64,000 nucleotides of DNA from a virus: the UHGV virus genome UHGV-0125682, one strand, 5' to 3'. Shown here one piece after another: positions 4,678 through 56,457 of the stretch; position 1 is the stretch's first letter, and every line of letters begins with the position of its first letter. The notes under the pieces are model-generated. The model was not told where the DNA came from. It saw only the letters and a list, made by a program, of their open reading frames with translations, and made no database searches. Both the position numbers and the translations under genes were made by a program.

Positions 4678-5287
4678 GAATAATTATGTTCTTCTTAATT
4701 ATGATGAGTTAAACGAAAAGGGGCTGTCAAAACTCGTCAAAGAAATCAGCAAAGGTGGTTACAAGATAGCGAGGGTGATCCCTGCAAGTAATGGCAGGAA
4801 GAAAGATGGGATCATGACGCGCACGTTTACCCTTATTGGTATTGATGAACAGACAATGGAAGTTCAGGTTAACGATACCGGTGATATATCTGGGATCAAA
4901 CTGAATGGTAAAACAGTACCGTTCAAGCCAGTAAAAACAATGTCGGCTTTGGGGCAATCTCTTGCGGCTTTATTTAATCGCGGAGCAACTTCTTTCCAGA
5001 AGTCATTAGCTCGAAAACTTGCTCGTGCAGCAAAAAATATTGATGACGGAAATAAGAAGCGGCAGGGAGTTAAATCTAACGCTCAGAAATTAGCTGAAGC
5101 GAAAGAATCACGTGATGCACTCCGTGAAGATATCGCTAATGCTAACGACAAACTGTCTAAACTCCAGAGCAAGTCAGACAAAGTAATGCAAGATACGGGT
5201 AACGTTAAAGCTGCCTTGTCTCAGGAAGTAGCTAAGACACGTGCTCTTAAAGAAGAAATCGCGCGCCTGGAGGATGAGCATGATTAA
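4667..5287 (+). CDS. hdf: Hdf-like coiled-coil protein (dar operon, by synteny)
   Basis: ~206 aa from ATG 4667 (RBS GAAGGAGA); coiled-coil C-terminus; precedes DarA-like gene. Confidence 0.4.
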   Translation: MSNKNNYVLLNYDELNEKGLSKLVKEISKGGYKIARVIPASNGRKKDGIMTRTFTLIGIDEQTMEVQVNDTGDISGIKLNGKTVPFKPVKTMSALGQSLAALFNRGATSFQKSLARKLARAAKNIDDGNKKRQGVKSNAQKLAEAKESRDALREDIANANDKLSKLQSKSDKVMQDTGNVKAALSQEVAKTRALKEEIARLEDEHD

Positions 5288-15716: not shown

Positions 15717-16058
15717 GCTGTTTCTAAATCGGAATGTATGATCTGCATCATCGACTGAAGTCATCCATTGCTGAAATTTTTAGTTGATCTTCCATGTTTT
15801 CAGGCTTATATTCATGCCGTCGTAGCAAATTCTGCGACCGGGTTTGACAGCCTGAATACTTACGCGGACAACCGCACATTTCCGATATTGCGGTATTTTT
15901 GTGTCCGTAAAACCACGTTACGCCCGAATTATGGTGGGGCGTGATGGGGAGGCTTCGGCCTGCTGGTTTCGTAAGTGCCAGTCTGTCAACCCTGTCACGT
16001 CCTGCCACCTGTTTGACAGCGGGTCGCAGGTTGTTTATCAACTTACGAGGCCGTAACT

Positions 16059-29124: not shown

Positions 29125-29201
29125 GATGGTGTAGCTCAGTAGGATAGAGCAGCAGCCTTCTAAGCTGTCGGTCGGTGGTTCGAATCCACCCACCATCGCC
29201 A
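29125..29201 (+). tRNA. tRNA-Arg (anticodon TCT)
   Basis: Cloverleaf folded by hand: acceptor GATGGTG/CACCATC, D-arm GCTC..GAGC, anticodon loop CTTCTAA, T-loop TTCGAAT, 3' GCCA. Confidence 0.85.
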
Positions 29202-29203
29202 AT

Positions 29204-29279
29204 GCCGGTTTAGCTCAGTTGGTAGAGCGCCTGCCTTGTAAGCAGGATGTCAGCGGTTCGAGTCCGTTAACCGGCACCA
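29204..29279 (+). tRNA. tRNA-Thr (anticodon TGT)
   Basis: Acceptor GCCGGTT/AACCGGC, D-loop AGTTGGTA, anticodon loop CTTGTAA, T-loop TTCGAGT, 3' ACCA. Confidence 0.85.
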
Positions 29280-31116: not shown

Positions 31117-31192
31117 GGCCCTTTAGCTCAGTGGTTAGAGCTGGCGACTCATAATCGCACGGTCACCGGTTCAAGTCCGGTAGGGGCCACCA
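31117..31192 (+). tRNA. tRNA with CAT anticodon (Met or lysidine-modified Ile2)
   Basis: Acceptor GGCCCTT/AGGGGCC, D-loop AGTGGTTA, anticodon loop CTCATAA, T-loop TTCAAGT, 3' ACCA. Confidence 0.85.
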
Positions 31193-31645: not shown

Positions 31646-32221
31646 ATGTTAACGGCGAACGATAACGCGTATGCAGAAGCAGATCTCATATTGAGTGACT
31701 TCATCGGTCAGCGGGAACGCTGGACACAAAAGCGAGAGGAACTTTATGCCTCGTTAGTTCGCAAAGGTGTCAACATTGAAACCGCTCAAAGCGGCGATAT
31801 GACGGTAGTCAGTGTTGGATTACATGGTGTGAGCGTGTCCGCAGCCAATCATGAGCCATACGTAGCGTTATCAGAGTCGATGGCAAGGCTAATTAAGTTT
31901 CTGAAGCAAACAGAAGCCAATAATGTTTTCATCGCCAAAAAGAACATCAATTTTTCTGCCGCCGTGTTCTGGATGATGAAGGGGCTTGACGCCCGCCGGG
32001 CATCATGGCCTAAAGGGAGCTATATGTCGATGTTCCGTGGCAGTATAGGCAGCAAAGAAAAGCTCGTCGAATTCCTGCCGGAAGAAGCATTCGATATTGT
32101 GGAAGGGTGCGATGTGATGATTATGCCTCGGCTGGTAATGATGAATGGAGACTTACAGGCACAGACAGACTGGTTCGCCACTGGCGTGGATATTATCGCG
32201 ACTGACTGGGAGGCATTCTGA
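31646..32221 (+). CDS. Protein with C-terminal DUF2829-like domain
   Basis: 191 aa; RBS AAAAGGAGA; C-terminal ...RRASWPKGSYM...NGDLQAQTDWFATGVDIIATDWEAF paralogous to 26072-26272. Confidence 0.5.
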   Translation: MLTANDNAYAEADLILSDFIGQRERWTQKREELYASLVRKGVNIETAQSGDMTVVSVGLHGVSVSAANHEPYVALSESMARLIKFLKQTEANNVFIAKKNINFSAAVFWMMKGLDARRASWPKGSYMSMFRGSIGSKEKLVEFLPEEAFDIVEGCDVMIMPRLVMMNGDLQAQTDWFATGVDIIATDWEAF

Positions 32222-32721: not shown

Positions 32722-33114
32722 ATGGAGCATATCAGCAGCGCAGAAATTGCGGATATCATGATTAGGGCTGACTGCTATCTGACAGTCACCGAAATCACCA
32801 CTCTAGCTAAAGAAAAATATCCTCACCTTCATGTTTCACGCGTAAGTGTAACCAACATCATTCGGCATTTTGTGCGGTCAAGCCGAGCTATTTGTGAGCT
32901 TGATGATCGTGTTTACCCACGGAAATACTGGTTGCATGGCCTGAACGGATATCAGTTCAAGGTGCGCGGGCGCACGCCTGAATACGGTAGCTTACTGGTT
33001 AAAAACTGTAGCAGGAAATCAGTCGAACAGGCGCGAAAAGAGCAACGAGAGCTGGTGGACATGGCGAATAAGCTGTGGAATGCCGCCGTTAAAAAGCGTG
33101 GTGTTGCTTTATGA
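32722..33114 (+). CDS. Putative late-promoter activator (P1 Lpa-like by position upstream of pacA)
   Basis: 130 aa; HTH-like LTVTEITTLAKEKYP; operator motifs upstream. Confidence 0.4.
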   Translation: MEHISSAEIADIMIRADCYLTVTEITTLAKEKYPHLHVSRVSVTNIIRHFVRSSRAICELDDRVYPRKYWLHGLNGYQFKVRGRTPEYGSLLVKNCSRKSVEQARKEQRELVDMANKLWNAAVKKRGVAL

Positions 33115-34475
33115 GTCTGGTTAATTGGGAGGAGCACCGCGCCCGCTTTATAGCGTTGCGTGAAGAAAAAGGGATCACTGTAAAGGAATACTGTGAGGAG
33201 CATGGCCTTAGCTTCAATACAGCCAGAAAGCATCTCAATATGAAAAAAAATGAGGTGCGGTCGCAGGTAAAGACAACAAAAAAAAGCACCAAATCACCTG
33301 AAAAAAAACGGGCGGGAAGAGCAACAAAAAAGCTGGAAGAGGGTGCAGAAAAAACAAAATTTACAGAAATTGACAATTCGCAGGGCGCAGGTTCTTTCCG
33401 AAGTATGCCGAGAAAGAAAACTTCGGATCATGAAAATAATGCAAATAATAACAATGAGATAAAAGAATCTGTCAGGAGATCATTGCGCGAAAAAATGGCG
33501 AAAATGATCCCCGAAGAAGATAAAAGCGCCCCAAAAATTGAGGGATCTTCAGCAATGATCCCTGGCGGTGCTGTGCAGCGTGCCACATTGCCCACTACGA
33601 ATGTGGCTCGCGATATGATGAAGAACGGCGCAGAAGAACACCTGCGGTTAGCAATTCAAATGGCGCAAGAGCGCGCACTTCAGTATCAAAGCATTGTTGA
33701 TCAGGAGGCCGAACGTCTACAGGCGGAAATAGACGCCTTGGGCGATAAAGAGCCAGAAGGAATGCACCCTGGGCAGCGCCTTCTCGGTCTAATCAGTGAC
33801 GCTGCCTACTACATGAATGATTTTATCAGTAGGTTGGCAGCTATATATCAGTCCGAACAAAAGCTGCGACAGGGGGATGAAAAGCTTCGTCAGAGCGCTC
33901 GCCAGCAAGCATTCAAAGAGGCTGAGGCCAGAGAAAAACTCGAATTAGCACGCCTACAGGCCGAACAGCGTGGCAAAGAGATTGAATATCGCATTGGCGC
34001 TGACGCACGCGCAGCCAGAGTTATCGCCGCCGCTATACGTATGCGTGAGCGCGAGGAACTGGATGATATCAGTGTTGCTGAATACATCGAGCGCCAGGGG
34101 GTCAGCGTCCCGGCTATCCTCGCGGCGCGCGCGGCGAAAGCTATCACTCTTCTCGAACCACCTGTTTCTGACGTCAATGATGTTGATGATGAACAGCTGG
34201 ACAAAGAGGCAAGGGAGTTTGCAACGCTTCAGGCTAACCATCCGCAATGGCTGGCAGAGCGCCGGGCGGATGTGGCAACCATTGTTGAAGAATTGGGGTG
34301 CGGAGATTACGACCGCAATGGCGAGCGTAAAGCTGGAGAATTCGAGGCCAACGACGAAGAGCTGGATATTGACCCTTCGGCAACGGCTGAAATTTACGGT
34401 GATTATGATGCATCTGATGCAGGGTATGACGCCGGAGATGATGATATCGCGATAGAACCGCCGGAGGATGATTAA
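33111..34475 (+). CDS. pacA: Terminase small subunit (PacA-like)
   Basis: 454 aa; N-terminal HTH ITVKEYCEEHGLSFNTARKHL; K-rich linker; acidic C-terminus; GATC-hexamer cluster inside; directly precedes large terminase. Confidence 0.7.
   Translation: MSLVNWEEHRARFIALREEKGITVKEYCEEHGLSFNTARKHLNMKKNEVRSQVKTTKKSTKSPEKKRAGRATKKLEEGAEKTKFTEIDNSQGAGSFRSMPRKKTSDHENNANNNNEIKESVRRSLREKMAKMIPEEDKSAPKIEGSSAMIPGGAVQRATLPTTNVARDMMKNGAEEHLRLAIQMAQERALQYQSIVDQEAERLQAEIDALGDKEPEGMHPGQRLLGLISDAAYYMNDFISRLAAIYQSEQKLRQGDEKLRQSARQQAFKEAEAREKLELARLQAEQRGKEIEYRIGADARAARVIAAAIRMREREELDDISVAEYIERQGVSVPAILAARAAKAITLLEPPVSDVNDVDDEQLDKEAREFATLQANHPQWLAERRADVATIVEELGCGDYDRNGERKAGEFEANDEELDIDPSATAEIYGDYDASDAGYDAGDDDIAIEPPEDD
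33420..33565. other. Candidate pac site (clustered TGATCC/GGATCA Dam hexamers)
   Basis: GATC at 33426, 33506, 33545 and 33557 within ~140 bp of pacA. Confidence 0.35.
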
Positions 34476-35983
34476 TGGCTGGCGGGCGCAAGATTAAATG
34501 CGTCACCAGCGATCCACGCTGGCGCGATATGGTAATCAAATACCGCTACAACTTTACCCAAGCTGTTGTCGATATTTTTGGGATGTTCCCCTCCCACCAG
34601 CAGCAGCAGATCATTCAGTCAGTGCAGGAAACGGGGAGTAGGACTACCGTCACGTCCGGACACGGAACGGGGAAGTCGTCCCTTACCGCGATGTTGCTGT
34701 TGATTTTTATGATCCTGTTCCCCGATGCCCGTGTCATCATTGTTGCTAACAAGATAGGCCAGGTAAAAACAGGCGTATTCAAATACGTTAAACAGTATTG
34801 GGCGAATGCAGTTAAGCGTCATGGGTGGTTGCAGACCTATTTTGTCCTCTCTGACACCATGTTTTATGAGCGCTCCCGTAAGGGGATTTGGGAAGTTCTC
34901 TGCAAAGGTTATCGACTCGGCAACGAAGAAGCGCTGGCGGGGGAACATGCGGCACATTTGCTTCTAATTCTGGATGAAGCATCTGGTATATCTGATAAGG
35001 CGATCGGCGTAATGACCGGTGCTCTTACTGAAGAAGATAACCGGATGTTGATGCTATCCCAGCCAACAAGGCCAAGTGGTTATTTCTACGATTCGCACCA
35101 TTCTCAAGCAAAAACCCCAGACAACCCGAAAGGGATCTGGACAGCAATTGTTCTTAACTCGGAAGAATCACCGTTCGTCACACCACAATTCATCAAGCAG
35201 AAGCTTCTGGAATATGGCGGGCGCGATTCTATTGAGTACATGGTCAAGGTGCTTGGTCAGTTCCCACGAGAAATTAACGGCTATTTGCTTGGTCGTGATG
35301 AATGCGATCGCGCAGCTCGCCGCAAGGTGTTGTTGGAGAAAAACTGGGGATGGGTGGCAACGGCTGACGTTGGTAATGGGCGAGATAAGTCGGTCCTCAA
35401 CATCTGCAAGGTATCTGGTCACAGGGATAAGCGGCGCGTTGTTAACTTTAAGGTAATGGAGATGCCTGGCACTATGGACCCATTGGCCTTTGCTGACTTC
35501 ATATATAACGAATGTACGCCGGAAAAATACCCGAATATAACAATCGCGGTTGATGCCGATGGTTTTGGTTCTGATACGTGTGCGCAGTTGGTGCGTCGTG
35601 GTGCGAACCCGGTACGTATTCGGTGGGGAAAACCCATGTTTGCAAACAAAGACAGGGAGCGATTTGTTAATCAGCGTGCCTACGCAAATATTATCGCGCG
35701 AGATGCCATAAAGTCAGGGCGTATGCGGATAGACAGTGACCCTAAAACGGCAGAGCAAGCGTCAAAAATCCCCTTTTTACTGAATGAAGAAGGGAAAATG
35801 GCGATGATGCGCAAAGAGCACATGCGGCAAAAGCTAAACATCAAATCGCCTGACCGATGGGATACCTACTGCTTCACTATGCTGGTGGACTATGTGCCTG
35901 CTAATGAAGATATTGGTGCCGAAATGGCAACTTTTCGGGATCAGGTTCTGGCGGATATCGAAATGCCGGATCTGGATATATAA
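34475..35983 (+). CDS. pacB: Terminase large subunit (PacB-like)
   Basis: 502 aa; Walker A TSGHGTGKSS; Walker B LLLILDEASG; ATG overlaps pacA stop. Confidence 0.85.
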   Translation: MAGGRKIKCVTSDPRWRDMVIKYRYNFTQAVVDIFGMFPSHQQQQIIQSVQETGSRTTVTSGHGTGKSSLTAMLLLIFMILFPDARVIIVANKIGQVKTGVFKYVKQYWANAVKRHGWLQTYFVLSDTMFYERSRKGIWEVLCKGYRLGNEEALAGEHAAHLLLILDEASGISDKAIGVMTGALTEEDNRMLMLSQPTRPSGYFYDSHHSQAKTPDNPKGIWTAIVLNSEESPFVTPQFIKQKLLEYGGRDSIEYMVKVLGQFPREINGYLLGRDECDRAARRKVLLEKNWGWVATADVGNGRDKSVLNICKVSGHRDKRRVVNFKVMEMPGTMDPLAFADFIYNECTPEKYPNITIAVDADGFGSDTCAQLVRRGANPVRIRWGKPMFANKDRERFVNQRAYANIIARDAIKSGRMRIDSDPKTAEQASKIPFLLNEEGKMAMMRKEHMRQKLNIKSPDRWDTYCFTMLVDYVPANEDIGAEMATFRDQVLADIEMPDLDI

Positions 35984-37259: not shown

Positions 37260-37291
37260 TAACTTTAAATAATTGGCATTATTTAAAGTTA
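37260..37291. other. rox: rox-type recombination site (14-bp inverted arms, 4-bp spacer)
   Basis: TAACTTTAAATAAT-TGGC-ATTATTTAAAGTTA; matches rox as recalled; 150 bp upstream of Cre-like gene. Confidence 0.8.
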
Positions 37292-56147: not shown

Positions 56148-56457
56148 CACTGACTGTTGCGCCCTGGCATTATCGTGGGGTATATTTCTACGGCACCTTA
56201 GAAAAACGGGTGCCGGGATTGGAACCCCGGATAATGCAAAAGGCGACACAGACGCCGAAAGCGTCTTTTTTTGTGTCATGCCATCGCACAGCCATACGTA
56301 GCGTTTAGCTCAGAGATCAATGGTAGTGCTGGCTGGGCTGCCGAAAGGCAGGCCGGTTCCCTTTTGCGCCGGTAGTTCCAACCCAGTCAGTGCTACCGCC
56401 ATTGAGATTGGAACCTCACGCGGTAGCTCCTTAAATTAGCAAAAGGAGGCTGCCAAT

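Follow-up and report, generated by a model that had tools for sequence, protein, structure and literature searches.

The pacA Locus

The subject of this analysis is the virus genome UHGV-0125682, of which a stretch of 64,000 nucleotides (nt), here called the window, was studied. It is a plasmid prophage of the P1 family which resembles phage D6, and its pacA gene contains a cluster of five GATC sites (33425–33562) which is quite probably the packaging initiation (pac) site of this phage-plasmid, or at least the recognition part of it. In BLASTN comparisons the window is collinear with D6 throughout at 87–98% identity, with some segments replaced. The open reading frame harbouring the cluster shares 99.2% identity with the pacA gene of Escherichia phage D6 (AY753669, MF356679), and the order of the surrounding genes, lpa-pacA-pacB-c1-rox-dre, is that of D6. 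The encoded protein matches phrog_1711, annotated as terminase, from end to end with an E value of 1.9e-183, and PacA of phage P1 matches the same PHROG, also from end to end, with an E value of 4.2e-202. Pairwise BLASTP aligned the PacA proteins of D6 and P1 over their full length with 21% identity (E 4e-10). At database scale neither direct nucleotide comparison nor tblastn revealed homology to P1, the two PacA proteins being linked through the pairwise alignment and the PHROG profile only. A helix-turn-helix (HTH) domain at the N-terminus of PacA was recognised as a weak domain match.

The 201 base pairs (bp) around the cluster occur in one copy per element in 81 of 5426 complete Escherichia coli genomes, and there on plasmids of about 90 kb only. 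D6-like pacA genes were also found on plasmids of Salmonella, Shigella, E. marmotae, E. fergusonii and Enterobacter.

The Five GATC Repeats

The initial annotation had proposed a pac site inside pacA from four clustered hexamers of the type TGATCC/GGATCA. The cluster is real and lies entirely inside the gene, but it consists of five GATC sites within 33420–33565, three of which are hexamers of exactly this type (Table 1). The pentamer TGATC is present in four of the five, two per strand. When read on either strand the hexamers are TGATCC (three times), TGATCT and AGATCC, and at none of the five sites is the TGATCA/G hexamer of P1 found. Spacings of 52, 28, 38 and 13 bp place the five repeats in 138 bp, in a layout of 1 + 4 sites, and their orientation from left to right is minus, minus, plus, minus (degenerate in the window) and plus.

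Repeats 3 and 5 are direct copies of AATGATCCC, 51 bp apart. Repeats 2 and 3 are inverted with respect to each other, with arms of 10 nt which are 90% complementary and have 18 nt between them; in divergent clades of D6-like genes these arms are perfect (GGGATCATTT and AAATGATCCC). Repeat 4 is in divergent clades a full minus-strand copy of AATGATCCC or a copy of ATGATCT, and forms a palindrome with repeat 5. The arms of this palindrome are AGGGATCATT and AATGATCCCT in locus L009, with 3 nt between them. The clade of the E. marmotae type has four perfect copies, 10–11 nt long, of AAATGATCCCT, two in each orientation, and one pair of them makes up a palindrome with a spacing of 3 nt. As read from these copies, the repeat unit is an oriented, non-palindromic sequence (A)AATGATCC(C) of 9–11 bp, longer than a hexamer.

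With five sites in 135 bp this is the densest cluster of four and of five GATCs in the window, the runner-up requiring 270 bp, and it is also the densest in the whole 91-kb genome of D6, where the runner-up requires 331 bp. The 8-mer ATGATCCC is over-represented in the window (7 observed, 2.2 expected), and TGATCC as such is not enriched (42 observed, 34 expected). The sole other local grouping of TGATCC, three copies in 122 bp at 4776–4898, is located by its coordinates in the tail-fibre (S') gene of D6 and is plausibly due to chance.

Table 1. Coordinates in the window of pacA and its candidate pac site, of pacB and of rox. GATC positions in pacA are counted from the first nucleotide of the gene; retention is given for 31 distinct D6-like pacA genes.
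Feature	Coordinates	Strand	Characteristics
pacA, small (recognition) subunit of the pacase	33111–34475	+	identity to D6 pacA; phrog_1711; candidate pac in the part coding for the variable linker, gene nt 314–452, amino acids 105–151
Repeat 1, GGATCAT (minus strand ATGATCC)	33425–33431	-	hexamer GGATCA 33425–33430; GATC 33426–33429, pacA nt 316; GGATCA invariant in 8-sequence alignment; GATC retained 31/31
Spacer, A/T-rich, between repeats 1 and 2	33431–33474		sequence variable, length fixed
Repeat 2, GGAGATCATT (minus strand AATGATCTCC)	33475–33484	-	hexamer AGATCA 33477–33482; GATC 33478–33481, pacA nt 368; inverted pair with repeat 3; GATC retained 30/31
Repeat 3, AATGATCCC	33503–33511	+	hexamer TGATCC 33505–33510; GATC 33506–33509, pacA nt 396; AAATGATCCC invariant in 8-sequence alignment; GATC retained 30/31
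Repeat 4, GGGATCT	33542–33548		hexamer GGATCT 33543–33548; GATC 33544–33547, pacA nt 434; degenerate in the window; GATC retained 31/31
Repeat 5, AATGATCCC	33554–33562	+	hexamer TGATCC 33556–33561; GATC 33557–33560, pacA nt 447; AATGATCCC invariant; GATC retained 31/31
pacB, large terminase subunit (ATPase/nuclease)	34475–35983	+	pacB in D6 records; phrog_2 'terminase large subunit', E 2.7e-40; weak Terminase_6N match
rox, site of the Dre recombinase, counterpart of P1 lox	37260–37291	+	exact 32-bp match, same as annotated D6 rox

Conservation among D6-Like Relatives

The main set for the study of conservation comprised 31 distinct D6-like pacA genes, taken from plasmid relatives and from IMG/VR loci. 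All five GATCs were found at the same gene positions in plasmids of S. dysenteriae (CP026808), E. coli (CP091837), E. marmotae (CP056699) and E. fergusonii (CP137859), the pacA genes of which have 70–75% nucleotide identity, and each of the five sites was retained throughout the set or with a single loss (Table 1). Because the cluster is conserved in such diverged relatives it is beyond chance. The part of pacA which contains it is the least conserved one of the gene, with 34–38% invariant columns as compared to 56–72% in mid-gene, and the only long invariant islands which the alignment shows in this stretch are GGATCA, GATCATT, AAATGATCCC, GATC and AATGATCCC. When the D6 clade is compared with the divergent clades, the GATC columns of the linker agree throughout (100% identity), as against 57% identity outside the hexamers. 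Conservation extends to only 5% of the other 4-mer windows of the linker, which gives a chance of about 1e-5 to 1e-6 for five conserved ones. No insertion or deletion occurred in nt 1–600 of pacA among the 31 sequences, so that all spacings of the repeats are fixed. From the eight other GATC positions in D6-like pacA genes one, at nt 63, is common to all clades, and the clade-specific ones are at nt 589, 634, 681, 1032, 1036, 1147 and 1180. Strong purifying selection thus acts on the DNA itself and maintains the position, spacing and GATC cores of the repeats.

A further conserved island in the otherwise variable linker of PacA is AATTTACAGAAATTGACAAT at 33356–33378. It encodes the protein motif FT-x-x-DN and contains TTGACA.

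Comparison with the pac Site of P1

Work on the pac site of P1 reportedly goes back to Sternberg and Coulby in 1987–1990 and to Skorupski et al. in 1994. In the annotation of NC_005856 the site is found at about 90,720–90,885, with a site for integration host factor (IHF) and the cleavage positions between two groups of hexamers. It is a 161-bp element with seven TGATCA/G repeats, the methylation of which controls cleavage by PacA/PacB (PMC10028697). Cleavage, methylation dependence and the requirement for IHF/HU are proven for P1 and are putative for the D6 site.

The two sites have much in common. Both are situated inside pacA, where the sequence coding for the linker directly follows that for the N-terminal HTH domain, and both consist of multiple GATC repeats, which no other GATC cluster of the locus equals in density. 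The pacases are homologous, with PacA in phrog_1711 and a large terminase as PacB in both phages. Both phages encode a methylase of the Dam family, which in D6 is the product of gene D6_63, a D12-class N6-adenine methyltransferase (Pfam E 1.9e-56) whose gene is located just beyond the end of the window. Finally, the site lies about 4 kb upstream of the recombination site, the distance from the centre of the cluster to rox being about 3.8 kb and that from P1 pac to lox about 4.0 kb. Apart from the low identity of only 21% between the PacA proteins, a difference in location is that the D6 cluster lies about 40–130 nt further into the gene.

The proven site of P1 could also serve as a positive control for the conservation analysis. 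In P1-like genes with 70% nucleotide identity six of the seven GATCs of the pac hexamers are kept, but only one or two of seven other GATCs in pacA. For the D6 clade at about 73% identity the corresponding figures for GATCs common to all clades are 5/5 in the cluster and 1/8 elsewhere in pacA. This selective retention is the pattern of the proven P1 hexamers and adds support to the interpretation of the D6 cluster as a pac site.

A pac site inside the gene of the small terminase, from which headful packaging starts, is also known from P22 (gene 3) and SPP1 (gene 1). Another example is termS of Gally (PMC9928086). All three have in common with D6 that the recognition site of the small terminase is within its own gene, but their sites are not GATC repeats and their small terminases have no sequence relationship to PacA. 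We know of no control of the pac sites of P22, SPP1 or Gally by Dam methylation.

GATC Clusters in the PacA Family

A scan of IMG/VR with the PacA alignment yielded lineages at 100–92%, 74%, 55%, 36–39%, 32–33% and 21–23% protein identity; among genome contigs only three P1-like loci were found. In all of 12 representatives of PacA lineages, ranging from 21 to 100% protein identity, the densest cluster of five GATCs in a locus of about 4 kb is contained in nt 150–475 of pacA. The clusters of the L045/L011, L049, L062, L016 and L079 types are thus located at a place in the gene which is equivalent to that of the D6 cluster, and no experimental studies of these five were found. The layout varies. 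P1 has 4+3 sites (+1), L079/L068 3+5, L016 from Pantoea 4 + about 4, L062 5+3, L049 six at an exact period of 12 bp plus two, and L045/L011 from Enterobacter 3+5, as compared to 1+4 in the D6 type. All the other lineages (L045/L011, L049, L062, L016 and L079 types) are bipartite (3+5, 6+2, 5+3, 4+3), and relative to them the left-hand group has been lost from the D6 type, in which the single site at nt 316 is a gain.

The repeat sequence is the palindromic TGATCA in most lineages. TGATCC(C) is found only in the D6 and L045/L011 types, which also have in common that left copies are on the minus and right copies mostly on the plus strand. In the alignment the D6 cluster corresponds to the group which L045/L011 has on the right, and the segment with the left-hand group of that lineage is absent from D6-like PacA. 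A GATC-repeat design of pac is hence a hallmark of the PacA family, within which sequence, number, spacing and orientation of the repeats vary freely, and this variation between lineages is raw material for studies of the recognition of methylated DNA by PacA.

The most regular pac-like array of the family was seen in L049–L061, L066 and L067, in which PacA is 32–33% identical to that of D6. Most of these loci have six GATC hexamers with an exact period of 12 bp at nt 154–214 of pacA, which encode xDH dipeptide repeats and to which two distal sites are added.

The putative recognition helix of PacA, residues about 36–43 (33216–33239), reads NTARKHLN in D6 and in L045/L011, NTARRELN/K in L049 and L062, and NTARRYLR in P1-like proteins. 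Its sequence may covary with that of the repeats, a relation which is confounded by phylogeny.

Evidence against a pac Site and Alternative Explanations

The interpretation of the cluster as a P1-like pac site based on GATC and located inside pacA draws support from the conserved positions, the constraint at the DNA level, the family-wide cluster, the P1 control, the distance from pac to rox and the D6 methylase. A number of observations weigh against it. From P1 pac, to which the initial annotation had likened the cluster, it differs in repeat and layout: the unit in D6 is the oriented 9–11 bp sequence instead of the palindromic hexamer TGATCA/G, and the arrangement is one of five copies as 1 + 4 or as inverted pairs instead of 4 + 3 copies flanking a spacer of about 90 bp. 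Alignment to P1 pac, to which that annotation had pointed as a check, brought no significant similarity of the spacer: local alignment of the D6 spacer with the spacer, IHF site and cleavage core of P1 pac was no better than that of shuffled sequences (P = 0.19). The IHF-like match in the spacer, TAACAATGAGATA at 33449–33461, is weak, with 2 mismatches to WATCAANNNNTTR, and a perfect IHF consensus, TATCAAAGCATTG at 33684–33696, had to be rejected as part of the site, being not conserved even among close D6-like genes. Two sequences, L017 (nt 368) and L043 (nt 396), have each lost one GATC by a single T-to-C change yielding GACC, with S replaced by P and I by T, respectively, in the protein; either single repeats may be dispensable or these elements may be defective prophages. 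No homologue of a Dam-type methylase was found within the window, and no record of D6 carries the annotation of a pac site. Finally, the left-hand cluster, still there in the nearest sister lineage L045/L011, is absent from D6-like genes, and when the 237 GATCs of the 64 kb are placed at random, or Markov-1 sequences are generated, some cluster of five within 135 bp is present in 27% of the cases.

The last two points would also fit a relic or chance cluster, with the true pac of D6 elsewhere or with packaging that starts without a specific site, since the missing half can be read as decay. Because equal clusters arise in so many random 64-kb sequences, density was not used as proof; if the cluster must fall in the 1.4-kb pacA, the figure becomes a rough 0.006, which is a scaling of the 27% figure and not a computed test. 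What speaks against a relic is that no comparable cluster exists elsewhere in the D6 genome and, above all, that the five sites and their spacing are strictly retained across clades with only 57% identity in the linker. Neutral decay or chance is ruled out by this retention, which leaves this explanation with hardly any probability. Conservation demonstrates a constraint on the DNA but not its purpose, and DNA-level conservation of GATC clusters is also typical of sites controlled by SeqA or Dam, such as replication origins and some promoters. The cluster might accordingly be a regulatory element sensitive to Dam and SeqA which governs the timing of pacA/pacB or the sequestration of newly replicated DNA. 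Against this, prediction gave no sigma-70-like promoter on either strand of 33000–34600, the cluster lies in mid-gene, with 900 bp between it and the downstream pacB, and the homologous cluster of P1 is pac by experiment. The repeat moreover exceeds GATC, and an oriented unit of 9–11 bp points to a sequence-specific protein rather than to SeqA or Dam alone, so that a regulatory element appears improbable. As no Rfam family was found in 33000–34600 either, an explanation by a promoter or a noncoding RNA was discarded.

A further alternative is that the protein requires the motifs DH, GS or RS, and twice MIP in the linker of PacA, and that the GATCs are a by-product of the codons. Both plus-strand repeats indeed encode Met-Ile-Pro, the codons of which fully account for the ATGATCCC core of these two copies, and the PacA of L045/L011, with its 55% identity, has MIP as well. 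The opposite-strand copies of the DNA unit, however, encode other peptides (DH; [R/G]S[L/F]). From left to right the five GATCs are in codon phases 0, 1, 2, 1 and 2, and the peptides at the sites are [S/A/E]-D-H, [R/G]-S-[L/F], M-I-P, [G/R]-S-[S/L] and M-I-P. The codon at the sites 368 and 434 is either AGA (Arg) or GGA (Gly), and site 316 is preceded by S, A or E, with GATC retained in each case. Aspartate is always encoded by GAT and isoleucine always by ATC at these sites, barring the two single-sequence T-to-C variants, and in other lineages the DNA hexamer persists with different peptides (xDH repeats, VIT, NDQ). As GATC is found in all three codon phases and in both orientations, and stays intact through Arg/Gly replacements, the constraint is on the DNA and not on the protein, and an origin of the repeats from protein needs is very unlikely. 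It is the DNA signal which dictates the local sequence of PacA (DH, [R/G]S, MIP) in a poorly constrained linker.

The comparison thus supports the D6 cluster as the probable positional and functional counterpart of P1 pac, belonging to the class of P1-type pac sites with a repeat and an architecture of its own. A description of a D6 pac site was not found in the accessible literature, which did not include the D6 genome paper (Gilcrease & Casjens 2018), so that a prior description is possible. Relative to database records and the accessible literature the sequence and layout of the D6 repeats are new; that pac is in pacA is itself expected for a relative of P1.

The Spacer and the Centre of the Site

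For a region which is bent or cut, the first choice would be the A/T-rich spacer separating repeats 1 and 2, which is a weak candidate by analogy with P1. It contains TGTCAG at 33470–33475, 8 nt past TAACAATGAGATA, and in P1 AAACAAAGAGTTA is followed by TGTCAG 7 nt on, in the region of the cut; the TGTCAG of D6 is not kept in the divergent clade of D6-like genes. An alternative centre would be at about 33493, where repeats 2 and 3 form a dyad about which the spacings of 52, 28 and 51 bp are nearly symmetric.

The discarded TATCAAAGCATTG adjoins a palindromic TGATCA (33698–33703), 125 bp downstream of the cluster, and is one of only 8 perfect IHF matches in the window.

In one IMG isolate assembly (taxon 2537562191) the end of contig L048 and the start of contig L037 break at the equivalent of 33430–33439, just after repeat 1, with an overlap of 10 nt, ATGAAAATAA. 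A physical end of the DNA at this position found no support, as 22 other IMG/VR contigs read through (1 of 23 broken), and the break is probably an accident of assembly.

Proposed Mechanism and Its Implications

The following scheme is modelled on P1 as regards the binding of PacA, the dependence on methylation, the exact position of the cut, the direction of packaging and any role of IHF. During late lytic growth the N-terminal HTH domain of PacA would bind to the oriented 9–11 bp repeats (A)AATGATCC(C), two of which face left (33425, 33475) and two or three of which face right or form inverted pairs (33503, 33542, 33554). Cutting would take place only if the adenines of the GATCs were methylated on both strands, either by Dam of the host, which E. 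coli, Salmonella and Shigella possess, or by the Dam-family enzyme of the phage. PacA together with PacB, probably with a host bending protein on the A/T-rich spacer, would then cut the concatemer within the cluster or next to it, after which headful packaging would proceed rightward through pacB and c1 to rox. In P1, packaging runs from pac toward lox, which comes to lie in the terminal redundancy of the first headful and allows cyclisation by Cre. In the same manner the first headful of a D6-like phage would have rox in each of its redundant ends, and Dre could convert it into a circle.

A tentative extension, for which we see some possibility but which is rather doubtful, is that pacases of the D6 type read the asymmetric oriented unit AATGATCC(C) as inverted pairs in one compact block, without a second distal group, and that the switch from TGATCA to TGATCC tracks the change in the recognition helix. 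If this were true, a pacase of the P1 family could assemble and cut on a single-sided site, and the orientation of PacA on its repeats, which is masked in P1 by the palindromic TGATCA, would become readable. It would also represent a natural swap of specificity and provide orthogonal pac/pacase pairs for phagemid delivery systems.

E. coli, Salmonella and Shigella commonly harbour plasmid prophages of the D6 type, which are, as headful packagers of the P1 type, expected to be generalized transducers. Knowledge of the pac site gives the start of packaging, helps in reading virion sequencing data and should be of use for phagemid and transduction tools which are based on D6 and do not cross-react with P1.

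Other Features of the Window

The reading frame of lpa (32722–33114) overlaps the start of pacA (33111) by 4 nt (ATGA), as compared to P1, where a gap of 85 bp between lpa and pacA holds the late promoter LPpac. As the overlap leaves no room for a promoter of this type, pacA of D6-like phages may be expressed differently from that of P1.

An open reading frame at 31646–32221, which corresponds to the hypothetical orf6 of D6, contains a domain similar to Tad2 (Thoeris anti-defence 2; Pfam E 2.8e-9). Two separate genes for C4 antisense RNAs are present at 15806–16012, with a c4-a1b1 target element, and at 56193–56403, with an isrK-like small RNA, and are consistent with the two icd/antirepressor modules of D6. 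Three transfer RNA genes were detected by Rfam at 29125–29276 and 31117–31189; in the equivalent region the D6 record lists transfer RNAs for Thr and Asn and an odd Ser-like one.

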